The position numbers and the translations under genes are program-made. Under the pieces are notes generated by a model, which saw only the letters and a list, made by a program, of their open reading frames with translations, was not told the origin of the DNA and made no database searches. A DNA stretch of 39,124 bases from a virus, in the IMG/VR virus record IMGVR_UViG_3300021399_000040. One strand, given 5' to 3'. Shown here one piece after another: positions 1 to 39,124 of this stretch; the stretch's first letter is position 1, and the number at the start of each line of letters is the position of its first letter.

Positions 1-127
1 GCTGTACGAAGGAATGAAATCCGGCTGGAACTATGTGAAGTCCTTCATGAAGACAAAGAAGGGCGTCCTGTTCCCGGAAGAGGTCGGCGGATCCGCGACG
101 ACATACTTCAAGTCGGCCTTCTACGGT
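1..127. repeat. Terminal direct duplication (copy 1), identical to 38998-39124
   Basis: Read directly: gctgtacgaaggaatgaaatccggctgg...tcggccttctacggt occurs at both window ends. This is consistent with assembly overlap of a circular or terminally redundant molecule. Confidence 0.97.
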
Positions 128-295
128 ACCGGCTCCGCCGGGGTTCGCTGCCCGTGGCGGTTCGCGGCCTTGTACAACGGGGCGAATGCCGGGCTGGCGT
201 GCGAGACTGGCAGCTACGCGCCCGGTAACGCGTACTGGTACAGCCGTCCGCGGCTTTGTGGAGCGGGTAAAAAGCGGGGTGAATGGACGTCGTAA
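1..295 (+). CDS. 3' end of the DGR target gene (tail/receptor-binding protein), with a C-terminal C-type-lectin-like variable region. It continues from 37583-39124.
   Basis: The frame is continuous with the open ORF that runs off the window end (39011 = 14 + 38997, same phase). The C-terminus reads ...GVRCPWRFAALYNGANAGLACETGSYAPGNAYWYSRPRLCGAG..., and the stop TAA is at 293-295. The track ORF 14..295 is only the part after an internal Met. Confidence 0.9.
   Translation, partial: LYEGMKSGWNYVKSFMKTKKGVLFPEEVGGSATTYFKSAFYGTGSAGVRCPWRFAALYNGANAGLACETGSYAPGNAYWYSRPRLCGAGKKRGEWTS
113..256 (+). repeat. DGR variable repeat (VR) at the 3' end of the target gene
   Basis: Hand alignment to 358-501 (offset 245) gives 133/144 identical bases. 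The 11 differences are at VR 122, 167, 168, 173, 207, 213, 215, 218, 233, 239 and 253. Every one lies opposite an A in the other copy. Confidence 0.93.
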
Positions 296-303
296 GACGT
301 CCA
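284..303 (+). promoter_or_regulatory. Stem-loop just downstream of VR (8-bp stem, GTAA tetraloop); candidate DGR target-recognition hairpin
   Basis: The sequence tggacgtc-gtaa-gacgtcca is read directly, and the stop codon TAA sits in the loop. A second 5-bp hairpin, agggg-gaagt-cccct, lies at 305-319. Bordetella-phage DGR homing needs a GC-rich hairpin with a 4-nt loop 3' of VR. Confidence 0.5.
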
Positions 304-357
304 GAGGGGGAAGTCCCCTGATGTAACTATAGACAATCAGGGTATGCAGGCGCGGGA

Positions 358-501
358 TCGGCCTTCAACGGTACCGGCTCCGCCGGGGTTCGCTGCCCGT
401 GGCGGTTCGCGAACTTGAACAACGGGGCGAATGCCGGGCTGGCGTGCGAGAATGGCAACAACACGCCCGGTAACGCGAACTGGAACAGCCGTCCGCGACT
501 T
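358..501 (+). repeat. DGR template repeat (TR)
   Basis: This is the non-coding copy of VR. It contains 27 adenines, 11 of which are substituted in VR, while none of the 117 non-A positions differ. In the VR frame it reads SAFNGTGSAGVRCPWRFANLNNGANAGLACENGNNTPGNANWNSRPRL, which is rich in AAC/AAT codons. Confidence 0.93.
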
Positions 502-692
502 ATTTTCATGAAGGCAGGCGAAAGTCTGCTGATGTGCGCCTGCATATCCGTGCGCAAGCAAAAATCAGTAAAACCGGAATCTTCGAAAGGGGAACACGCA
601 GCTGTGGGCTGCGCGTGCGGCAAGTAGTAACAAGGCCGGATCTGCTTTAAGGTCAGACCGCAACCGAACGCCGCTTCACAAAATAAAGAATT
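502..692 (+). ncRNA. TR-RT spacer, probably the 3' part of the DGR template RNA
   Basis: This is about 190 nt with no convincing ORF, lying between TR and the RT start. Local stems are visible, for example gcaggcg(513-519)/cgcctgc(537-543) and cgcagc/gctgcg near 597-613. In the Bordetella DGR the spacer RNA primes cDNA synthesis. The function here is inferred from position only. Confidence 0.45.
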
Positions 693-2081
693 ATGCACAC
701 GAAGAGATACAGGAAGCTGTCCCTGAAGCTATGCGAAGAAGCAGTCGAAGAATGTTTCAAAAGCAAATGGAAGCGCCGCGACATTCTGGTATTCATCGAG
801 AAGTACGCCGGAATCGGAAGGACGGAAATCCTGATCGACGATCTGTCCGGATCCAGACGTGTGAAGGAAGAAGCGATCCATTCGATCGGGCTGATGCTGT
901 ACGGCGTCGTGGAAGATCTGGTCGAATACGGGATCGAACCGGACGACATGGAGCCGCCGACGATCCGCCAGCGTCCGGACGGCATGACAGGGAAGACGCG
1001 GGACATCGCACTGCTGTCCATCCTGCATCAGCTGATCGGACACGTCGAAAAGCTGATGATTGAACCGCTGATCAACGCGCGGCTTCTGCCGACGCAGCAC
1101 GCCAGCATTCCGGGACGCGGTCAGACGCTGCTGAAGGATCAGGCGCACAGATACCTTCTGAAGGAGACGGTCGGCGTCAGGTACATCCAGAAGACGGACG
1201 TCGTCCACGCATACGCGACGCTGAAGTATCAGGTCTGCGTGGACATCCTGAAGAAGGAGATCCCGAAAGCGAAGGCCGCGATCGTCCTGCTGGAATATCT
1301 GGGACGGATCGCACCGGACGGGCATCTGATCATCGGCGGGTACATCGACGCCTGGCTGTTCAATTTCACGATGTCCTACGCGATCCGCGACCTGTACGCA
1401 CAGGGAACCACACGGCGCGGGAAGAAGATCCCGTATGTGATCCGCGTCGTCACCTTCATGGATGACTTCGCGCTGATGTCCGGATCCGTCAAAGGACTGA
1501 AGCGGGCGACGAAGCGCCTGGACAAATACTTCCGGAAGGAAATGGGAATCGAACTGAAGACGACATCCGGAATCAGTAAGATCCTGACGGTCGAAGAAGA
1601 GAAGCGACGACGGAGCCTTCCGGGAAAAGCGCAGCGTGGCGTCCCGATGCTGGACATGGCGGGATACAGGATCAGCAGGACGCACATCACGATCCGCAGG
1701 CGCGTCTTCCGGAGGGCACGAAGGCAGCTGATCAGAGGATACAGAGAGCTGAAGAAAACGGGAACACTGCGGCGGGATCGTGCACAGAAAATCATATCGT
1801 ACAACAGCTACGTGAAGCAGACGGATTCGCACGGGCTGAAGGAAAAGTACCACGTGGAAGAACTGATCAAGATGGCTGAACAGGTTCAGGGATTCTATCA
1901 GCGGCTGGATCAGCAGAAAAGAAAGGAGTGGCTGCATGTATTACAAGAGCGACGCGGCAGAGAAGCCGCAGAAGGTGACGCTGGAACATCTGCCGGGCGG
2001 GAAGATCTTCGTCCGTCTTGCGGACAATATCCAGCCGTACAAACAGGAGGATCAGCCGGATCGGACGATGTACCGTTTTGA
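693..2081 (+). CDS. DGR-associated reverse transcriptase (divergent)
   Basis: RT palm motifs are readable: ...SIPGRGQ..., KTDVVHAYATLK, IIGGYIDAWLFNF and VVTFMDDFALM (the YxDD-type catalytic motif). It sits immediately downstream of TR. No Shine-Dalgarno sequence lies before the ATG, unlike neighbouring genes. The last ~48 codons overlap the next gene and look low-complexity. Confidence 0.88.
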   Translation: MHTKRYRKLSLKLCEEAVEECFKSKWKRRDILVFIEKYAGIGRTEILIDDLSGSRRVKEEAIHSIGLMLYGVVEDLVEYGIEPDDMEPPTIRQRPDGMTGKTRDIALLSILHQLIGHVEKLMIEPLINARLLPTQHASIPGRGQTLLKDQAHRYLLKETVGVRYIQKTDVVHAYATLKYQVCVDILKKEIPKAKAAIVLLEYLGRIAPDGHLIIGGYIDAWLFNFTMSYAIRDLYAQGTTRRGKKIPYVIRVVTFMDDFALMSGSVKGLKRATKRLDKYFRKEMGIELKTTSGISKILTVEEEKRRRSLPGKAQRGVPMLDMAGYRISRTHITIRRRVFRRARRQLIRGYRELKKTGTLRRDRAQKIISYNSYVKQTDSHGLKEKYHVEELIKMAEQVQGFYQRLDQQKRKEWLHVLQERRGREAAEGDAGTSAGREDLRPSCGQYPAVQTGGSAGSDDVPF

Positions 2082-2319
2082 CGAAGTCCAGTTCTTCATG
2101 CCGGACGGCAAGGCCGCGACGGCGCAGGAGATCGAAGAGGACTTCGCGACATGGTGGCAGTACGGGATGGATGATGTGCATCCGGATCCGGATCCGCCAG
2201 CGCCTGAAGAAGAAGCGATGACACGGGCGCAGCTGACGAAGATCGTCAGCGAACAGAAAGAGCAGATCGCCATGCTGGAAGATTGCATCTTGGAGATGTC
2301 GGAAGTGGTATACGAATGA
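1936..2319 (+). CDS. Hypothetical protein, XkdW-like by position (between the tail fibre and the lysis genes)
   Basis: An RBS aaaggag lies about 8 nt upstream. The C-terminus is an acidic coiled coil ...QLTKIVSEQKEQIAMLEDCILEMSEVVYE. The gene overlaps the RT ORF by 146 nt. Confidence 0.6.
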   Translation: MYYKSDAAEKPQKVTLEHLPGGKIFVRLADNIQPYKQEDQPDRTMYRFDEVQFFMPDGKAATAQEIEEDFATWWQYGMDDVHPDPDPPAPEEEAMTRAQLTKIVSEQKEQIAMLEDCILEMSEVVYE

Positions 2320-5435: not shown

Positions 5436-6842
5436 TCATAAAAAAATAATGTCGGCGATGCTGCCGTCTTCACGAATGCGTATGGTGTCCACGAAGGACT
5501 TCCAGAACGCATTTTTTTCTTGCACGGAAAAGTCACTGTACACATCTTCCCATGGCTGCGACAGGAATTTCTTCAGTTCGCTGACGTCCTTCCGGGGATG
5601 ATCGGCAGCGGTCAGCGCTTCCTGAAGCTGGGCGTTCAGCTGATCGTATTCGGATTTGTACAGATCGCGGTCGATCAGATCGTCCATGAACAGGTCGTAC
5701 AGCTTCTTCAGCTTCGTCCGGATCCGGGCGGCATCAGCTGCCGGATTCCTACCGCGACTGCCGCCGTCTTCCACATCATAGTCCGCGATGTATGCGGAGA
5801 GGGACGGGCGGACAAGAGCCAGGACGCGATCTTCAAGGACTTCTTCCATCCACGACTTGTTATTCGTGCAGCTGTGGTTCATGTTCCACGCTGTGCATCT
5901 GTACCGCGGCTTCCGGGTAATGGATCCATCCTTCCGGCGACGGCCTGTCGTATATCCTGCGATAGAGCGACCGCAGACGTCACAGGTCAAAAGACCGCTG
6001 AAGATAAACTGCGTACCGCTTCGGCGCTGGCGCACGTTTTTCTTGATCAGCGTCTGGATGTGGTCGAAGCGATCCGGATCTATCAGAGGATCGCAGAACT
6101 GCGGATCGTCGCGGTACATTCCCTTGTACAGGGGATTCTTCAGCATCCGGATGAAGCTGCTGTACGAATAGATGCAGCTGTACCGTTCCTGTAGAGCGAA
6201 AAGGGACTTCCGGACGGATCCGGTCACTTCCAGCATGTCGAAGGCATCCAGCGCGAACTGCTTCCATTCCGGATCGGGAACGACATGTTTTTCGGCGTCG
6301 AGCATCAGGCCGCGCGGGACGGATCCGGTCACGAAGGACTTGTTCTTCAGCTTGAACGCGAACACGTCCTTGATGCGGTCGCTGTCACGATCACATTCAT
6401 CTTGCGCCACGGACAGGCGGATATTGATGTGCAGCCTGCCGTTCGTCGTGGTCGTGTCGTATGATTCCGTCACGGCCTTCCATTGGACGCCGTTCGCTTC
6501 CAGAACTTCCTGTATTTTGTGATAGTCGCCGATATTCCTGAACCAGCGATCCAGCTTCGTGAAAAGGATCACGTCGAAGTCATGCCGCCGGACGCCGTCA
6601 AGGAGCCGGACGAATTCCTTCCGGTTCGTGTATTTCTTCCGGGCGGTCAGTGCTTCGTCGATGAATGTGTCGATCAGGACGCAGTGATTCCGGGCGATGA
6701 AGTCGTCCAGTATTTCGTTCTGTGCTTCCAGCGTGTCGCCGTGAAGAACCTGATCGTCGTGGCTGCACCGGATGTATTTGACGACGCGGACGCCGTACAG
6801 TTCCGGGGCTGACTGTGTCATATACATCAGATCACCTTCCAT
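5436..6842 (-). CDS. int: Large serine recombinase (phage integrase)
   Basis: The N-terminal resolvase domain reads VVKYIRCSHDDQ...FTKLDRWFRN...RLSVAQDE. A recombinase domain follows, then a Cys-rich zinc ribbon (CDVCGRSIAG...YRCTAWNMNHSC) and a C-terminal coiled coil. The likely start is the Met at 6821, with RBS ggaaggtga at 6839-6831. Confidence 0.93.
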   Translation of the reverse strand: MEGDLMYMTQSAPELYGVRVVKYIRCSHDDQVLHGDTLEAQNEILDDFIARNHCVLIDTFIDEALTARKKYTNRKEFVRLLDGVRRHDFDVILFTKLDRWFRNIGDYHKIQEVLEANGVQWKAVTESYDTTTTNGRLHINIRLSVAQDECDRDSDRIKDVFAFKLKNKSFVTGSVPRGLMLDAEKHVVPDPEWKQFALDAFDMLEVTGSVRKSLFALQERYSCIYSYSSFIRMLKNPLYKGMYRDDPQFCDPLIDPDRFDHIQTLIKKNVRQRRSGTQFIFSGLLTCDVCGRSIAGYTTGRRRKDGSITRKPRYRCTAWNMNHSCTNNKSWMEEVLEDRVLALVRPSLSAYIADYDVEDGGSRGRNPAADAARIRTKLKKLYDLFMDDLIDRDLYKSEYDQLNAQLQEALTAADHPRKDVSELKKFLSQPWEDVYSDFSVQEKNAFWKSFVDTIRIREDGSIADIIFL

Positions 6843-11496: not shown

Positions 11497-12513
11497 ATGA
11501 GAAAGAGAAGGAAGAAGGCCGTCATCGAATACGACTATGAAGCGGCCTATAACAAAGCGCTGGAAGATCTGGAAGAAGATCAGGTGCAAAGGATCCTTCA
11601 GGGCAGCAGGAAGGCGACAGTGTACGCCACGAAGGAGATCCGGGCAGGCGATCAGCTGGAAGTGGAGATCTATCCGGAGTTCGTCAGAGGGCAGCAGGCA
11701 GAGATCCCGCCGACAGCTGCACAGAAGGAGAAGCACCGAAAAGCACAGTGGAACCTGAACGAGAAGAACAGCAGGAAGCAGTGCGAAAGAGTGATCAACG
11801 CGAACTTCGGGGACAGGGACATATGGGCGACGTTCACCTACACGGACGCAGACATGCCCGCCACGATGGAAGAAGCACTGAAGAACATGCAGAACTACAT
11901 CAGGCGCTTGAACTACCAGAGGAAGAAGCGCGGCCTGAAGAACGCCAGGTACGTCTACACCACGGAGGGGACGCAGGAAGGAAGATTCCACCATCACATT
12001 GTCATGGATGGGGACATCGACATGGACACTGTGGAAGAACTGTGGATAAAGGGAAGGCGGAATCAGGTGCGCCGCCTGGACAAGGATGAAGACGGCCTGA
12101 CGGGGATGGCGAAGTACATCACGAAGGAGAAGAAGAAGAAGTCACAGAAGAAGTGGACACCGTCGAAGGGTCTGAAGAAGCCGGAAGAAAAGGTGAATCA
12201 CTATAAGTTCAAGGCGAAGGACGTCCGGGAAATGGCAGCGGACAGCAGCTGCATCCGGGACAAGATGACGCGCTGGTATGGACAGCAGGGATACACATTC
12301 GCGAAGGCCGAAGTCAGATACAACGACGTGAACGGCAGATTCTACATCAACGCAAGGCTGCACAGACAGCCGGAAAGGACAGGGAAATGGAAAACAGGAC
12401 GGAAGAACAGAGCAGGAGGACGGGGCGGAGGATCCCGCACGGCAAGGCAGAGGAAGCGAGAAGAAGACGGCAGCGCAGGCGGATCATCCGGAAAGCGAAG
12501 CAGATCGCGCTGA
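11497..12513 (+). CDS. HUH-superfamily rolling-circle replication initiator (Rep)
   Basis: The three Rep motifs appear in order: WATFTYTD (motif I), GRFHHHIVMDG (HUH, motif II) and GMAKYITKEKK (catalytic Tyr, YxxK, motif III). The Arg/Gly-rich tail overlaps the next gene. Confidence 0.8.
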   Translation: MRKRRKKAVIEYDYEAAYNKALEDLEEDQVQRILQGSRKATVYATKEIRAGDQLEVEIYPEFVRGQQAEIPPTAAQKEKHRKAQWNLNEKNSRKQCERVINANFGDRDIWATFTYTDADMPATMEEALKNMQNYIRRLNYQRKKRGLKNARYVYTTEGTQEGRFHHHIVMDGDIDMDTVEELWIKGRRNQVRRLDKDEDGLTGMAKYITKEKKKKSQKKWTPSKGLKKPEEKVNHYKFKAKDVREMAADSSCIRDKMTRWYGQQGYTFAKAEVRYNDVNGRFYINARLHRQPERTGKWKTGRKNRAGGRGGGSRTARQRKREEDGSAGGSSGKRSRSR

Positions 12514-13283
12514 TCGTGGCGGCGCTGGCAGTCTTCGTCCTGATCGCGTTCGGTCTGGTGAAGGGAGTGATGGCGATCGCGTGCACAGTATTCGGAGAGC
12601 CGAAGGACGTGTCCGTCGCGGAAGCAGCACCGGAACCGGAAGAAAGCCAGGAAGCAGAGACGCAGCCGGTGGAGATCATGACGCCTGAAGAGGTCGACGC
12701 GAACCAGATGGCGAAGTACGGCTGCAAGATCTACGGATCCTACGGATACCCGTGGAACCGGATGTCGCAGGACTGGGACAACATCGAAGGGTTCTACTAT
12801 CACGACATATCGACAGCGGCGAAGCAGGCCGGGGGCGAATTCCCGGTCATCGCGCAGATCTACACATACATCGTCTGCCGGGATGCGGGCGTGGACTATG
12901 AAACAGTCTTCGCGCTGATCGAGAAGGAAAGCGGCTGCGTGTGGGATGCGATCGGAGATTCCGGGGAATCGGTCGGGCTGATGCAGATCAATGAAAGATG
13001 GCATCGGGACAGGATGCGGAAAGAGCGATGCACGGATCTGATGAATCCATACATGAACATCCGCGTCGGCGTCAGCTATCTGGCGGAACTGTATGAAGTG
13101 ACGGGGAACGTCACCGACATGCTGACGGCCTACAACTACGGCCTGCAAGGCGCACGTGAAAACATGTGGTGCCGTGGCATCCACGACTATCCATACAACG
13201 AAGAAATCATGCAGCGCGCGGCAGAACTGAAAGCAGAGACGGCAGCGGCGCGAAAGCAGTGGGAAGAGAGGAACAAGGAATGA
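12387..13283 (+). CDS. Membrane-anchored lytic transglycosylase (SLT domain)
   Basis: A basic N-terminus is followed by the TM segment IALIVAALAVFVLIAFGLV. The SLT motifs are ALIEKESGCVWD...GLMQINERWH...NIRVGVSYLAEL...AYNYG. Confidence 0.8.
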   Translation: MENRTEEQSRRTGRRIPHGKAEEARRRRQRRRIIRKAKQIALIVAALAVFVLIAFGLVKGVMAIACTVFGEPKDVSVAEAAPEPEESQEAETQPVEIMTPEEVDANQMAKYGCKIYGSYGYPWNRMSQDWDNIEGFYYHDISTAAKQAGGEFPVIAQIYTYIVCRDAGVDYETVFALIEKESGCVWDAIGDSGESVGLMQINERWHRDRMRKERCTDLMNPYMNIRVGVSYLAELYEVTGNVTDMLTAYNYGLQGARENMWCRGIHDYPYNEEIMQRAAELKAETAAARKQWEERNKE

Positions 13284-13735: not shown

Positions 13736-14040
13736 CGGTAGGTGAATTTTGCGAAGTGCTGCACAATCCGGATCGCGTCCGGATCTTCCGGAAGGAAGGA
13801 GAAGAAAAGGTGCTGATCTTCGACGGATGGGCGGCATCCATAAAGCAGGACGCGGGGAAAGCGCGGATCAGGCAGCAGGATCTGGAAAGGAACGTCGTCG
13901 ACTTCAGGGCGACGCCGGAGATCACGCACAAGGACTACAAGAAGCGCGGCCTGATGCCGCCGATGGATCCGGACATGACGCCGATGTACAGCTTCAGCGA
14001 TCTACAGATGCGGCTGTACTACGACATATTCGCAGGATAA
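13732..14040 (+). CDS. Hypothetical protein
   Basis: An in-frame ATG overlaps the upstream stop (ttatga). The product begins MTVGEFCEVLHNPDRVRIFRKEGEEKVLIFDGW... The upstream part of the track ORF is Arg/Gly-rich and out-of-frame-like. Confidence 0.6.
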   Translation: MTVGEFCEVLHNPDRVRIFRKEGEEKVLIFDGWAASIKQDAGKARIRQQDLERNVVDFRATPEITHKDYKKRGLMPPMDPDMTPMYSFSDLQMRLYYDIFAG

Positions 14041-14060
14041 CGAAGGAGGGCACACGCACC

Positions 14061-14858
14061 ATGATGAAGATCATATCAGTGATGAACCAGAAAGGCGGGA
14101 TCGGGAAGACCATGACGGCGGCATCGATCGCGTACATTCTGGGAGAGGAAAGGCAGCGGCGCGTCCTGTGCGTCGACGCGGATCAGCAGGGGAACCTGTC
14201 CATGCTGTACGACAGCTTCGATCCGGAAGGCGCAGGGATGCCGGAACTGCTGGAAAGACACAGAAGCACGGGCGGATCATACAGCACGGCGGATCTGATC
14301 AGGACGACACCGTACGAACACATCGACATCATCCCGGCGAACGGATACCTGATGCGCACGAACATGAATCTGCTGCTGAAGGAGAGGGACGACCAGATCG
14401 CCAGGTTCACGGCGGCGATGCTGGAAGTGAACGGCGCATACGACTATTGCATCGTGGACTGCGGCCTGCTGATGGACATGACCGTGACGAACGTCCTGAT
14501 CGCGTCGGATCTGGTGATCATCCCGGCAAAGGTCGGAGGATTCGAGATCGAGGGCATCGGAAACACGATCGAACAGATCGAAGATCTTCGACGCCTGAAT
14601 GCCGGGATCCGGACGAAGGTGCTGATGACCATGCGCCAGAAGAATCAGACATCGCTTCAGGTCGAAGAATGGCTGAAGACCGTATCCGGGTATGAGTGCT
14701 TCAGCACATCCGTCAGACGGTCGATCGTGGCGGAGAAGGCAACGGTCGCACGCCTGCCGCTGCCGAAGTTTTCAAAAGGCTGCATCGTGACGAAGGACTA
14801 TCAGGCCGTGACGCAGGAACTGATCGAAGACATGGAAGGCGGCGCGGCACATGACTGA
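14061..14858 (+). CDS. parA: ParA/Soj-family partition ATPase
   Basis: The RBS is gaaggaggg. The deviant Walker A reads MMKIISVMNQKGGIGKTMTAA, followed by VLCVDADQQGN and IIPA motifs. Confidence 0.88.
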   Translation: MMKIISVMNQKGGIGKTMTAASIAYILGEERQRRVLCVDADQQGNLSMLYDSFDPEGAGMPELLERHRSTGGSYSTADLIRTTPYEHIDIIPANGYLMRTNMNLLLKERDDQIARFTAAMLEVNGAYDYCIVDCGLLMDMTVTNVLIASDLVIIPAKVGGFEIEGIGNTIEQIEDLRRLNAGIRTKVLMTMRQKNQTSLQVEEWLKTVSGYECFSTSVRRSIVAEKATVARLPLPKFSKGCIVTKDYQAVTQELIEDMEGGAAHD

Positions 14859-15416: not shown

Positions 15417-17087
15417 ATGGCGGCAGGATGGAGCGTGCTGGACGCACTGAACAAGAACAGCAAGGCAGCGGTCGACGATAAGCCGACAGCAAGGTTCCGG
15501 ACGCGGGACATCAGCATCCGGAAGATGTACAGCAACGAAAAGAACTTCTACAGCATGACCGACATCGAGAAGCTGGCGCAGGACATCCTGACGTGCGGCC
15601 TGCTGGAAAACATGACGGTCACATATGCGCCGTGCGAGAAGGGCGAATACAGGATCATAGCAGGCGAAAGGCGCTGGCGGGCGCTGACGATGCTGTGCAA
15701 TCTGGGATACAAGGAATTCGAAGTCGCCACGTGCCAGATCAAGAATCCGGCAGAGGAACACGAAGAGACGGTGCAGCTGATCATGGCGAACGCATACCGC
15801 GATAAGACCGTGATGGACGTCCTGGAAGAGGAAAAGCAGCTGAAGGCCGCGCTTCAGTACATGAAGGACAACGGTCTGACGCTTCAGGGCTACAAGCTGG
15901 ATTCCGGAAGGCTGCGGGATGTGATCGCGTCCATCATGAACATGACCGGGACGAAGATCGCGCAGATCGAGAGCATCAACAACCGACTGATCCCGGAATT
16001 CACGCAGGAACTGAAAGAAGGACGCCTGACGTTCAGCGCGGCCTATGAGATCAGCGGCATGGACGAAGACCGGCAGCGGGACATGCTGGAACGCTACAAG
16101 GAGACGGGAAGCCTGACATGGAAGGACGTCAAGGAAGCGAAGGCAGCGGCAGCGGATGAAGAGAAGGAAGAGATTCCGGGACAGATGAACTATCCGGAAG
16201 ACTTCGAAGAAGAGGATGACGCGGATCAGCAGGAAGCGGATCGCTTCGCACATGATCAGGATCCTGCGGACGAAGAGATCTTCGCTGCATGGCAGGATGT
16301 GACGGGCAGAGGGACAAGGCTGAAGATCACAGACCAGACCACGAAGGACGGCCTGATCGAACAGCTGAAGGAATACTTCGGCAGATCTTACAGCGGATTC
16401 AGCGCGAACACGGATCCGGTGACATTTATCAACTGTTCCCCGAATGGGATCAAACTGGAAGTGAAGATCGAAGGACGATTCGTGCAGCGGAAGATGATCA
16501 GCTGGACGGCATTCGTGAACAAGGTGATCGAAGCGGGACTGTTCACGCCGATGAAGGAAGTGGACGCGCATCCGGAAGCGAAGGAAAGCATCTGCTACGC
16601 CTGCGACAATTACGAAGCCTGCCTGAAGAAGCAGACGAACGTCATGAAGTGCGACAGCTTCGTCGACCGCAGAGAAGCCAGGAAGACGGATGAAGAGCGA
16701 TACAGCGAAGAGCAGGACAGGATCGACAGAGAGACGAAGAAGAAGCTGGAAGCGATGCAGGAGGATCAGCAGGGGCAGCGGGAGCAGGACGACAGGCCGC
16801 AAAGGTACATCCGCGTGTCTGCTGACATGTATCACGCGATCGAGACACAGCAGATCCCGTACATGATCGTCATGAAGGACGCGCAGGGCTACAGAGAGGG
16901 CGACAGGCTGATGATCCTTGCGATGAAGGACGGAAAGGCCACAGGCGACAGGATGAAGGCCGTCGTGACATGCGTGGACGACGACACGACGTCCGGCGGA
17001 ATCTGCGAAGGATACGCCGTGATCGGCGTCATGGACATCTACGACGCGGAATCGCTGGGACTGATTGATCTGGAGGACGAAGACTGA
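15417..17087 (+). CDS. ParB/Srx N-terminal-domain protein fused to a Cys-cluster segment and a C-terminal DUF3850 (ASCH/PUA-like) domain
   Basis: The ParB box reads YRIIAGERRWRALTML. An acidic linker follows, then CYACDNYEACLKKQTNVMKCDSF. The C-terminus ...YHAIETQQIPYMIVMKDAQGYREGDRLMILAM...TGDRMKAVVTCV...EGYAVIGV matches the DUF3850 pattern by eye. Confidence 0.8.
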   Translation: MAAGWSVLDALNKNSKAAVDDKPTARFRTRDISIRKMYSNEKNFYSMTDIEKLAQDILTCGLLENMTVTYAPCEKGEYRIIAGERRWRALTMLCNLGYKEFEVATCQIKNPAEEHEETVQLIMANAYRDKTVMDVLEEEKQLKAALQYMKDNGLTLQGYKLDSGRLRDVIASIMNMTGTKIAQIESINNRLIPEFTQELKEGRLTFSAAYEISGMDEDRQRDMLERYKETGSLTWKDVKEAKAAAADEEKEEIPGQMNYPEDFEEEDDADQQEADRFAHDQDPADEEIFAAWQDVTGRGTRLKITDQTTKDGLIEQLKEYFGRSYSGFSANTDPVTFINCSPNGIKLEVKIEGRFVQRKMISWTAFVNKVIEAGLFTPMKEVDAHPEAKESICYACDNYEACLKKQTNVMKCDSFVDRREARKTDEERYSEEQDRIDRETKKKLEAMQEDQQGQREQDDRPQRYIRVSADMYHAIETQQIPYMIVMKDAQGYREGDRLMILAMKDGKATGDRMKAVVTCVDDDTTSGGICEGYAVIGVMDIYDAESLGLIDLEDED

Positions 17088-37582: not shown

Positions 37583-39124
37583 ATGGCAGACATGGATCTG
37601 ATTTTCCCTTCGTGGACACAGCACGAACGGATCGCTGCCGCACTGGAATCGATCGCGCTGAACGGCGGGTCATCCGATGCGGCTGTCCTTGACGCGGCGT
37701 GCAAAAGCGTCCTGGACGGAACGAACACCACGCGCGTGTTCTGGGAATTCTATCCGCGCGCAGCAGCAGCAGGAGAGACAAGCAAATACAAGATCCTTGA
37801 AAGATTCGCAAAGGCAGCGGCGCAGGCGTGGAACAGCAAGACGTACACGCTGCGAAGCTATGATGCAGCAGTATCCGGAAACACGGCGATGACGCCGATG
37901 GATGATCTGGCAGGAAAGAACGCTGCGCAGCTGTGCACAGCATCCGACGCAGCGGTCGAGGATTGGGCGGACGAAGATCCGATGACATGGTACATCCGGG
38001 CGAATGCGATGTCCCTGGAAGATGGAACCATGAACATCACATACTTCGAAGGCGAAGACGGATTCGACATCACAGGCGAAGACGCGCCCGTCTGGACGTT
38101 CGCGCTGGCGCTGTGGATCAAGGAATGGAACGACGGGTCGTTCAATTTCATCAGCTTCCGGACGACCAAAGGCGCGGGATTCTATCCGGACGCCGGGGAT
38201 GTCGCACCGGACGGAACGAAGCGGGCGCTGACATGGCATCCTTCATTCCCCGGCGGACTGAACAGCAGCGGCGCGCTGACATCCGGCGCAGGCATCAGGC
38301 CGTACAACTTCGCCAGCGCGACCGCAGGCATCACAGCAGCGCGCAAGATGACGATCTACGAAGGACTGTGGAATGACTGCGATACAAGATGGATCCTGCG
38401 GATGTGGCAGCTGCGGCACTTCGATCTGGAAAACAGCAACATCGCGAACGGCTGCATCAGCTACGACAGACAGTACCAGGTGGCGAAGGCAGAAGAAAAT
38501 GTGAAGCGCGTGATCCTGTCGACGACGCAGGCCGCGAACCTGATCGTCGGTTCGACCGTGTCGATCGGCGACATGGGATCGTCCACGAACAAGGACAGAG
38601 GACAGGCGCACATGCGGAACATTCTGGATCTGGTCAAGATCAGTTCCATCGAAACCGTCACGATCGACGGCGACGAACTGGCAGCGGTCGGCATCGAGAC
38701 GGAAAGCGCATTCACCACGACAGCGACGACATATATTTCGACGATGCCGTGGCATTCCGGCGCGACGGAACTTCTTCCGGGAAGGAAGGACGGATGCCCG
38801 CACGGTCTGACGAATGGAACGTCGCCGCTTCGTGTGGCTGGCGTGGAAGTCCTGGACGGCGCATATGCGGTCGGCCTGGATCCGCTTTATACCGTCACGG
38901 CGAACGCTGTGTCTGATTGGGATTATTCGATCTACGAATGCCGCGACAGTCAGAATCTGGCGGGATCCGTGACATCGAACTACGAAGACACTGGCCTGCT
39001 GTACGAAGGAATGAAATCCGGCTGGAACTATGTGAAGTCCTTCATGAAGACAAAGAAGGGCGTCCTGTTCCCGGAAGAGGTCGGCGGATCCGCGACGACA
39101 TACTTCAAGTCGGCCTTCTACGGT
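37583..39124 (+). CDS. DGR target protein, 5' part (tail fibre / receptor-binding protein). It runs off the window end and continues at 1-295, giving about 569 aa in total.
   Basis: The RBS aaaggagga lies at 37567-37575 and the ATG at 37583. The frame stays open to the last base of the window, so the ORF is absent from the supplied track. It is in phase with the 14..295 ORF across the 127-bp overlap and is the last gene of the tail module. Confidence 0.88.
   Translation, partial: MADMDLIFPSWTQHERIAAALESIALNGGSSDAAVLDAACKSVLDGTNTTRVFWEFYPRAAAAGETSKYKILERFAKAAAQAWNSKTYTLRSYDAAVSGNTAMTPMDDLAGKNAAQLCTASDAAVEDWADEDPMTWYIRANAMSLEDGTMNITYFEGEDGFDITGEDAPVWTFALALWIKEWNDGSFNFISFRTTKGAGFYPDAGDVAPDGTKRALTWHPSFPGGLNSSGALTSGAGIRPYNFASATAGITAARKMTIYEGLWNDCDTRWILRMWQLRHFDLENSNIANGCISYDRQYQVAKAEENVKRVILSTTQAANLIVGSTVSIGDMGSSTNKDRGQAHMRNILDLVKISSIETVTIDGDELAAVGIETESAFTTTATTYISTMPWHSGATELLPGRKDGCPHGLTNGTSPLRVAGVEVLDGAYAVGLDPLYTVTANAVSDWDYSIYECRDSQNLAGSVTSNYEDTGLLYEGMKSGWNYVKSFMKTKKGVLFPEEVGGSATTYFKSAFYG
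38998..39124. repeat. Terminal direct duplication (copy 2), identical to 1-127
   Basis: Same 127 bases as the window start. Position 38998 corresponds to position 1. Confidence 0.97.

Follow-up and report, generated by a model that had tools for sequence, protein, structure and literature searches.

A diversity-generating retroelement with no detected avd gene at the end of the tail module of a temperate siphovirus of gut Clostridia

Gut phages very commonly carry diversity-generating retroelements (DGRs), a well-known kind of element. The viral DNA analysed here, IMG/VR record IMGVR_UViG_3300021399_000040 (39,124 nucleotides, referred to as the window), carries a compact cassette of this kind at its 5' end: the 3' end of a phage tail gene with a variable repeat (VR), a non-coding gap of 101 nt without any open reading frame (ORF), a template repeat (TR), a structured spacer and a reverse transcriptase (RT) gene, all on one strand, with a small acidic ORF (orf127) lying across the end of the RT gene (Table 1). 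A previous reading made from the letters of the window alone (hereafter the sequence-only reading) had already interpreted the cassette as a DGR that diversifies a phage tail protein.

Table 1. Coordinates of the features of the cassette and its target gene (positions in the window; a point marks a feature given without a strand).
Feature	Position	Strand	Remarks
Target gene, 5' part	37583-38997	+	ATG at 37583 behind AAGGAGG; continues at window position 1
Target gene, 3' part	1-295	+	TAA at 293-295; VR-bearing C-terminal domain, conserved tail GAGKKRGEW
Variable repeat (VR)	113-256	+	Varied positions between 122 and 242
IMH-like VR 3' end (GCCGTCCGCGGCTT)	243-256	+	G+C-rich, no variable site; G253 fixed versus TR A498
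Conserved stretch from VR to hairpin (..GGGTAAAAAGCGGGGTGAAT)	257-283	+	Coding, encodes the GAGKKRGEW tail; conserved at the nucleotide level
Hairpin/cruciform after VR	284-303	.	Stem 284-291 with 296-303, loop GTAA 292-295, target stop codon in loop
Second hairpin, AGGGG-GAAGT-CCCCT	305-319	+	Kept in 24/24 loci
Helix H1, 5' strand (GGGTATGCAGGCGC)	340-353	+	4 nt upstream of TR; pairs with 536-549
Template repeat (TR)	358-501	+	27 adenines
Structured spacer RNA	502-692	+	Between TR and RT gene
Spacer stem-loop	~513-529	+	Predicted in 25/25 sequences, unrelated sequence each time; ends 2-6 nt before H1 3' strand
Helix H1, 3' strand	536-549	+
Helix H2	551-560	+	3-bp stem, GNRA-type tetraloop GCAA, directly after H1
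Single-stranded A-run	561-566	+	Invariant AAAATC
Helix H3	580-593	+
Helix H4	594-616	+
Helices H5 to H7	617-674	+	Invariant AGTAGTA (623-629) and AACCGAA (662-668)
DGR reverse transcriptase	693-2081	+	462 aa; starts 191 nt after TR; FMDD at residues 255-258
orf127	1936-2319	+	127 aa, acidic; overlaps RT 3' end by 146 nt

A repeat search recovered VR and TR as one 144-nt direct repeat, the copies of which start 245 nt apart and are 92% identical, and a base-by-base comparison of the two found matches at 133/144 positions. All 11 mismatches fall on an adenine of TR, where 16 of the 27 adenines are unchanged, and none of the 117 non-adenine positions differs; the chance that 11 random mismatches would all land on the 27 adenines is C(27,11)/C(144,11) = 1.4e-9. 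Ten of the 11 changes lie at codon position 1 or 2 of AAC, AAT and ACG codons, and the remaining one is a silent change of CGA to CGG. The sequence-only reading had described the same repeats, spacing, identity and mismatch coordinates from an alignment made by hand, and these were reproduced exactly by the repeat search and the direct comparison, as were the coding effects, on which both translations agree. Mismatches at non-adenine template positions had been named there as evidence against a DGR; the exact alignment contained none.

Relatives of the element were collected by a scan of IMG/VR with the RT (29 loci), a scan with the alignment of its family (65 loci) and an exact-protein look-up (16 more contigs with an identical RT). 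TR is 100% identical in every close relative, and each VR differs from it at 10-17 adenine sites. Ten distinct VRs were found alongside the identical TR, all with adenine-only differences, and each of the TR adenines upstream of position 498 (26/26) varies in at least one of these ten, always at codon position 1 or 2. Differences between individual contigs and the window were counted in colinear alignments only: contig L096 has 0 differences in 13,716 aligned nt outside VR and 12 within the 144-nt VR, and for contig L003 the counts are 14 within VR and 9 over the 9,178 nt outside it. Heterogeneity of VR among related genomes, with an unchanging TR, had been proposed in the sequence-only reading as a check on the element; it is abundant. 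An invariant TR beside a varying VR is the population signature of mutagenic homing and argues for recent activity. The pattern is also present farther away, since 30/33 distant loci (RT 40-65% identical) have a TR/VR pair of their own, 130-151 nt long, at the same position and with adenine-specific differences. Over 46 distinct TR/VR pairs of the RT family, 692/714 mismatches fall on TR adenines, although adenines account for only 18.9% of TR bases; the prophages of two cultured Lachnospiraceae isolates show 16 and 19 mismatches, adenine-only.

Some individual records deserve separate mention. The VR of a close relative (L009, 3421-3564) has an in-frame 3-nt deletion relative to its own TR as well as 14 adenine-site changes. 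Record IMGVR_UViG_3300031853_000021 (78,688 bp; loci L008 and L010) holds two diverged copies of the phage ~39 kb apart, with RTs 98% and 93% identical to that of the window; the two VRs are identical to each other, and at one non-adenine position both differ from TR (C to G). This contig may have arisen by the joining of two strains during assembly, or it may represent a tandem double lysogen. In the predicted protein P0269, from an 801-nt contig in ENA, the region upstream of VR is joined to the TR-encoded Asn-rich sequence and then runs into the spacer (..NWNSRPRIYVFMKAGENLL..), which probably reflects a collapse of the VR/TR repeat during assembly, a genuine recombinant of VR and TR being the less likely origin.

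The RT gene corresponds to the ORF with an FMDD catalytic motif that the sequence-only reading had placed about 190 nt after TR. The protein matches phrog_1423 'reverse transcriptase' at 2e-35, has 337 homologues, nearly all of them unnamed, and ends in ~37 disordered residues that overlap the next ORF. A phmmer search of the PDB with the RT alone gave no match, and only a profile of 30 family members reached chain 8ub7_A, the DGR RT of Bordetella phage BPP-1 (entry title 'Diversity-generating retroelement (DGR) ribonucleoprotein reverse transcriptase'), at E 6.7e-7, followed by group II intron RT chains at 0.011-0.047. In a Foldseek search of the PDB, the AlphaFold model of the RT (predicted local distance difference test, pLDDT, 83.9) likewise matches 8ub7_A best, with E 4.5e-14 and a template-modelling (TM) score of 0.78 on the target, versus ~0.55 for G2L4 and group II RTs; retron RTs stand far below the DGR RT in the ranking. 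Clustering with group II intron or retron RTs had been named earlier as an outcome that would speak against a DGR, and the closest solved structure by profile and by fold is instead a DGR RT, with no group II intron or retron RNA found in the window by Rfam. Judged by the best profile match in the PDB and the best match of the predicted fold, the RT groups with the DGR RT. The RTs of the cultured rumen Butyrivibrio phages Arawn, Idris and Closwp03 (GenBank) are ~23% identical to that of the window.

The target gene runs across the ends of the window. The window begins and ends with the same 127 nt (1-127 = 38998-39124, the duplicated part holding the first 15 nt of VR), which makes it a circular assembly with a length of 38,997 bp. 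Its target protein, encoded across the window ends, has 569 aa, VR covering codons 506-553, and gene calls for the near-identical contig L095 include the same gene. Matches were found to phrog_17147 (6e-134) and to phrog_5302 'tail protein' (1e-14), and it is the final gene of the tail module, ahead of the holin and lysin genes; the earlier designation of the target as a phage tail protein agrees with this gene position and with the weak homology to phrog_5302. The protein has no Pfam or NCBIfam match, and its C-terminal domain has none in Pfam even at E up to 10. In PDB searches with the target protein, this domain and a profile of distant relatives, the best matches, a tail tubular protein (E 0.09) and a Rieske protein (E 0.95), were taken as chance. 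A profile search of 1.84 billion representatives found a family of 406 clusters (50% identity) with the domain, which forms the C-terminal end of proteins that have varied N-terminal parts and lengths of up to 1,160 aa; ten members that were tested contain zero Pfam domains. The diversified part is formed by the ~45 C-terminal residues of this last tail-module protein, presumably the receptor-binding protein.

Sequences at and behind the 3' end of VR were compared among relatives for cis-acting elements, including one that resembles the initiation of mutagenic homing (IMH) site. VR253 is G in 10/10 VRs that share the TR, and the corresponding 3' differences are constant in more distant relatives too; the mismatch at TR498/VR253 is for this reason a fixed TR/VR difference and not a product of mutagenesis. 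The sequence-only reading had counted this position among the 11 adenine mismatches that it took as the signature of mutagenic homing, which holds for the adenine-only pattern but not for TR498/VR253. Over the RT family (24 loci), the VR end GGCTT is nearly invariant, and the TR ends read GACTT, GAATT, GGATT, GGCTC or GGCCT. In most lineages the TR ends carry 1-2 fixed differences from the VR ends, and these explain most of the rare non-adenine mismatches. We infer that TR498/VR253 is a marker of the IMH/IMH* type. The last position that varies is TR 487, and 488-497 (VR 243-252) is A-free and G+C-rich; therefore, transfer must begin within 488-497.

The coding stretch that follows VR, up to the first hairpin, has many invariant columns, third codon positions included (alignment A3, 24 loci, RT identity 40-100%), which suggests a cis-acting role as DNA or RNA besides coding. 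The hairpin behind it has a stem of 7-8 bp at a distance of 28 nt from VR, with compensatory changes in 6/7 pairs of the main helix. For both post-VR hairpins together, 94.2% of alignment cells are paired versus 81% in shuffled and 39-60% in slid alignments, with 0/500 shuffles as high. The stem of the second hairpin is almost invariant, so that covariation is uninformative there; it was not called in the terminator scan, and its possible roles are those of a transcript end or a component of the target signal. In BPP-1, homing requires a hairpin after VR, as Guo et al. showed, and in other phage DGRs such hairpins have stems of 7-10 bp and 4-nt loops and lie 4-34 bp from VR (PMC3240598). The hairpin after VR in the window fits these published ranges for stem, loop size and distance.

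For an analysis of the region around TR as RNA, 25 loci were aligned over the stretch that begins 40 nt before TR and ends at the start of the RT gene, and this alignment was folded and then tested for covariation. The fold contains 41 pairs in 7 helices, which are paired in 94.3% of cells across the 25 sequences versus 71% in shuffled and 34-50% in slid alignments; compensatory changes were found in 37/41 pairs, and 0/500 shuffles reach any of these measures. Helix H1, which is 14 bp long and brackets TR, has compensatory changes in 12/14 pairs and is paired in 98% of cells. Cryo-electron microscopy of the BPP-1 complex has shown an Avd-binding stem-loop just downstream of TR, the same stem-loop being present in 207 other DGRs, and an 11-bp avd:Sp duplex between the upstream flank and the spacer, for which a mean of 13 bp was predicted in the 207 other DGRs (bioRxiv 10.1101/2023.10.23.563531). 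The BPP-1 'cPRT Stop' consists of this duplex, a stem-loop with a 2-bp stem and a tetraloop, and adenosines that make A-minor contacts (bioRxiv 10.1101/2023.10.23.563531). By layout, not homology, H1, H2 and the A-run would together be the equivalent of the 'cPRT Stop'.

Other searches of the RNA gave negative results. With Rfam, neither the RNA around TR nor any other part of the window had a match at the gathering threshold, and 1-2400 had none even at E up to 1. No complementarity of the linker 532-535 or the preceding stem with the TR 3' end, as would mark a priming adenosine or a template:primer duplex, is kept across the relatives when these are compared by eye. Three terminator-like sites in 1-2400 were rejected, as they lie on the minus strand and are no more than expected by chance. 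The published survey of DGR RNAs covered Avd-containing DGRs only (bioRxiv 10.1101/2023.10.23.563531), and no RNA structure of an Avd-less DGR was found in the literature searched.

The ORF behind the RT gene was examined as a candidate component of the cassette. Gene callers report only an 83-aa form of orf127 that starts at 2068; the start at 1936, which gives 127 aa, is served by a Shine-Dalgarno sequence, and the 44 N-terminal residues thereby added are conserved as protein in distant loci. The overlap between the two genes corresponds to the unconserved, disordered tail of the RT, whose end 'DVPF*' is the other frame of the conserved 'MYRFDE' of orf127. A frameshift or sequencing error as the origin of the 146-nt overlap was rejected because both frames are open in relatives. 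A homologue of orf127 lies behind the RT in 27/32 loci, whereas other neighbouring genes are kept in only 2-15/32, and in one locus (L089) the homologue is found between the target gene and TR, the classical position of avd. The calculated isoelectric point (pI) of the 83-aa form is ~4.1. Avd has a pI of 9.5, unlike the acidic orf127. Searches of Pfam, PHROG and NCBIfam gave no informative family match for orf127; among GenBank phages it occurs only in MT836832, which carries the same RT, and an IMG/VR scan with the single protein, made to look outside RT-bearing phages, returned close relatives only. The protein is a candidate component of the cassette and may act as an accessory protein specific to this lineage or, alternatively, as a linked chaperone of the tail fibre.

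The cassette belongs to a complete genome of a temperate siphovirus of gut Clostridia, with a G+C content of 55.5%. The head and packaging genes encode small and large terminase, portal, ClpP-type protease and HK97-type capsid proteins; the tail module runs in the order tape measure, Dit, Prophage_tail, DUF859 tail protein and BppU_N protein, then the target gene, and the DGR is followed on its 3' side by small ORFs, a holin and a glucosaminidase/CW_7 lysin. Genes for lysogeny and replication encode a serine recombinase, a helix-turn-helix repressor, ParA- and ParB-like proteins and a Rep protein. The large serine recombinase, Rep (REP_ORF2-G2P) and the ParA- and ParB-like genes lie at 5436-6842 (minus strand) and at 11497-12513, 13749-14858 and 15417-17087 (plus strand), and the phage is equipped for integration and, possibly, for plasmid-like maintenance. 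An ORF for an SLT-domain lytic transglycosylase (12387-13283, plus strand) is found in the replication region, an unusual location, and overlaps the end of the Rep ORF by ~125 nt. Related prophages were found in Hominifimenecus microfluidus, Fusicatenibacter faecihominis and a metagenome-assembled genome of the Oscillospiraceae, and relatives also occur in human faecal viromes; the cultured hosts are Fusicatenibacter faecihominis CLA-AA-H277 and Hominifimenecus microfluidus CLA-AA-H215.

Taken together, the adenine-only mismatches, the fixed TR beside varying VRs and an RT nearest to the DGR RT of BPP-1 support the DGR interpretation that the sequence-only reading had reached. We put the probability at roughly 0.96 that the element is a DGR of a temperate gut Clostridia siphovirus and diversifies the C-terminal ~45 residues of the last tail-module protein. 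The earlier interpretation is incomplete rather than wrong, in that it missed the absence of Avd, the fixed eleventh mismatch and the wrapping of the target gene around the ends of the window. The element is of a known kind, and a cassette without avd is a recognised architecture; avd is present in 74% of DGRs. Those without accessory genes (Architecture A) make up 29% of 372, and the DGRs of Lineage 3 described by Wu et al. lack avd (PMC5758913). A full-text literature search found no paper beyond Wu et al. on Avd-independent DGRs and none describing how these work.

Several results weigh against this interpretation. No ORF flanking the cassette matches Avd or HRDC in Pfam or NCBIfam, and Avd is essential in BPP-1 (PMC5758913; bioRxiv 10.1101/2023.10.23.563531), so that the lack of an avd gene here counts against a DGR. 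The RT reaches 23.6 bits against Pfam RVT_1, for which the cut-off is 29.6, and has no match in NCBIfam. PDB profile searches with the C-terminal domain of the target, including a profile of 22 distantly related sequences, found no relative, and the AlphaFold model of the C-terminal 274 aa has a pLDDT of 58.9, with values <50 over VR, too low to assign the VR domain to the C-type lectin or Ig-like folds on which DGRs display VR. The loop of the hairpin after VR, GTAA, departs from the published 5'-GRNA consensus (PMC3240598). A scan of 1-2400 found no sigma-70-like promoter ahead of TR, and we infer the cDNA (complementary DNA), the priming site and the transcript ends without exception.

A further point of this kind is motif 4 of the RT. 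DGR RTs have the signature [I/V/L]GxxxSQ (PMC7826257), but in the window the motif reads IIGGYLDAWLFN (I214-G-G-Y-L-D-A220, IGGYLDA), with IG kept and SQ replaced by DA, and all 30 family members in the alignment share this sequence. HMMER aligns the RT to 8ub7 in a register shifted by one residue, with AW at the place of SQ, and SQ is absent in either register. The SQ signature is kept in ~90% of DGR RTs, the exceptions being SP, SH, NQ, PA, AQ and VQ in 15/155 elements, and DA is absent from these published exceptions (PMC3521204). The signature is typical, not obligatory, and the family shows adenine-specific variation regardless. In BPP-1, Q187 of the RT contacts the incoming nucleotide (bioRxiv 10.1101/2023.10.23.563531), and the substitution Q187P left the misincorporation frequency at adenines unchanged (PMC7826257), a result consistent with the natural absence of this Gln from a clade whose variation is nonetheless adenine-specific.

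An unlikely alternative is that the cassette is incomplete and belongs to a canonical, Avd-dependent DGR, with Avd supplied in trans from the host chromosome or another prophage. The requirement for Avd in BPP-1 speaks for this, as does the stem-loop just downstream of TR, which is present in 25/25 family members at the position of the Avd-binding stem-loop of BPP-1 and 207 other DGRs, and the search for Avd covered the phage genome rather than that of a host. However, the entire RT family (65 IMG/VR loci, and prophages in several genera) shares the Avd-less layout, and dependence on an unlinked host gene would be hard to maintain across several host genera. Moreover, Wu et al. found no avd in a genome-wide profile search of the genomes of Avd-less DGRs (PMC5758913), and the precomputed Pfam calls for the near-identical contig L095 contain no Avd-like family within 10 kb on either side of the cassette.

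That the element is a fossil, with VR/TR differences left over from a time when the cassette still worked, is very improbable and close to refuted: a single genome cannot separate past from present activity, but near-identical contigs show 12 and 14 differences from the window in VR against 0/13,716 and 9/9,178 outside it, the RT ORF is intact with its catalytic FMDD conserved in the family, and compensatory change has preserved TR, the helices of the RNA and the hairpin. The least probable alternative, a tandem duplication of a gene segment beside an unrelated RT of a group II intron, retron or defence system with an adenine bias due to chance or selection, could draw on an RT that falls under the RVT_1 threshold, lacks the SQ signature and has high-probability Foldseek matches to group II intron, G2L4, DRT9 and retron RTs too, but is already refuted by the adenine-specific pattern across genomes (a chance of 1.4e-9 in the window, recurring in the 46 pairs), and also has against it the lack of group II intron or retron RNA in Rfam, a DGR RT as top match by sequence profile and by fold, and a TR that is not within a protein-conserved ORF and has flanks conserved as RNA structure.

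For the DGR interpretation, a course of events can be proposed from the conserved elements. A transcript running from about 340 into the RT gene would fold so that H1 brackets TR; H1, the GNRA-capped H2 and the A-run behind it would act as a 'cPRT Stop', and the stem-loop just downstream of TR would occupy the position of the Avd-binding stem-loop. The RT would prime within the spacer and begin cDNA synthesis inside the A-free stretch 488-497, and A498 would never be transferred because of this proposed start. It would then copy TR toward its 5' end, misincorporating opposite adenines, and the resulting cDNA would replace VR, the target being marked by the G+C-rich VR end (GGCTT versus GACTT in TR), the conserved 27 nt and the hairpin. 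The larger RT (462 versus 328 aa in BPP-1), the RNA, orf127 or a host factor would presumably take the role of Avd.

The element was compared with the prototype, the DGR of BPP-1, which has the order mtd-avd-TR-brt. The two are alike in that VR lies at the 3' end of a tail gene, for receptor binding in BPP-1 and presumably also in the window, and TR upstream of the RT gene on the same strand, in adenine-only mismatches at codons of the AAY type, and in a G+C-rich VR end with fixed differences from the TR end (IMH versus IMH*). Both have a G+C-rich hairpin with a 4-nt loop after VR, with the stop codon inside, and in both a duplex of flank and spacer brackets TR and is followed by a short tetraloop stem-loop and an adenosine run, with a stem-loop downstream of TR; the RT of BPP-1 is the nearest solved structure (8ub7). 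However, in BPP-1 avd lies between the target gene and TR, where the window has the 101-nt non-coding gap, and its RT has 328 aa versus 462 here, at ~17% identity in the structural alignment, with IGxxxSQ in motif 4 versus IGxxxDA. The hairpin loop of BPP-1 is GAAA and its distance from VR 4 nt, versus GTAA and 28 nt in the window, and its spacer is ~140 nt long versus 191 nt here, where extra helices are present. The conserved acidic ORF over the RT end and the Gram-positive host are further features of the window that set it apart from BPP-1.

In gene content, the element resembles the Avd-less DGRs of Architecture A1/Lineage 3 (PMC5758913), which have target (VR), TR and RT on one strand, no avd, HRDC or MSL gene, a single adjacent target, an association with phages and 0-1 non-adenine substitutions per repeat pair. 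Lineage 3a has an acidic accessory protein too, CH1, which differs from orf127 in its length of 160-169 aa and its occurrence in Bacteroides elements. The RTs of group II introns, G2L4, DRT9 and retrons share the palm, fingers and thumb and an N-terminal extension with the RT of the window and give high-probability Foldseek matches, but at TM scores of ~0.45-0.64 versus 0.78 for the DGR RT. Group II intron, retron and defence RTs differ from it also in their surroundings, as no intron, msr/msd or defence noncoding RNA is present here and the neighbours are tail and lysis genes; they differ in biology as well, since here a template repeat would be copied into a gene of the host phage.

All of these results can be joined in a broader reading, which is offered tentatively and to which we would give rather less than an even chance. 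In this reading, the element would stand for a self-contained, Avd-independent DGR lineage that is widespread in prophages of gut Lachnospiraceae and Oscillospiraceae, and in which Avd would be replaced by the larger RT with IGxxxDA, a lineage-specific RNA (with its stop duplex, stem-loop and A-run) and orf127, while the fold of the variable domain would be new to DGRs.

The element is a compact, apparently active example of the Avd-less class and could be used as a model for Avd-independent DGRs, with the assets of a complete 39-kb phage genome, relatives that reside as prophages in cultured isolates from the human gut, an RNA supported by covariation and a candidate partner protein. It raises the question of how a DGR RT primes, stops and mutagenises without Avd, and its conserved motif 4 departs from a signature thought to be tied to adenine mutagenesis. 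Finally, the 406-cluster family of previously unannotated C-terminal domains, to which the diversified end of the target protein belongs, is flagged by these data as a family of likely hypervariable receptor-binding modules.

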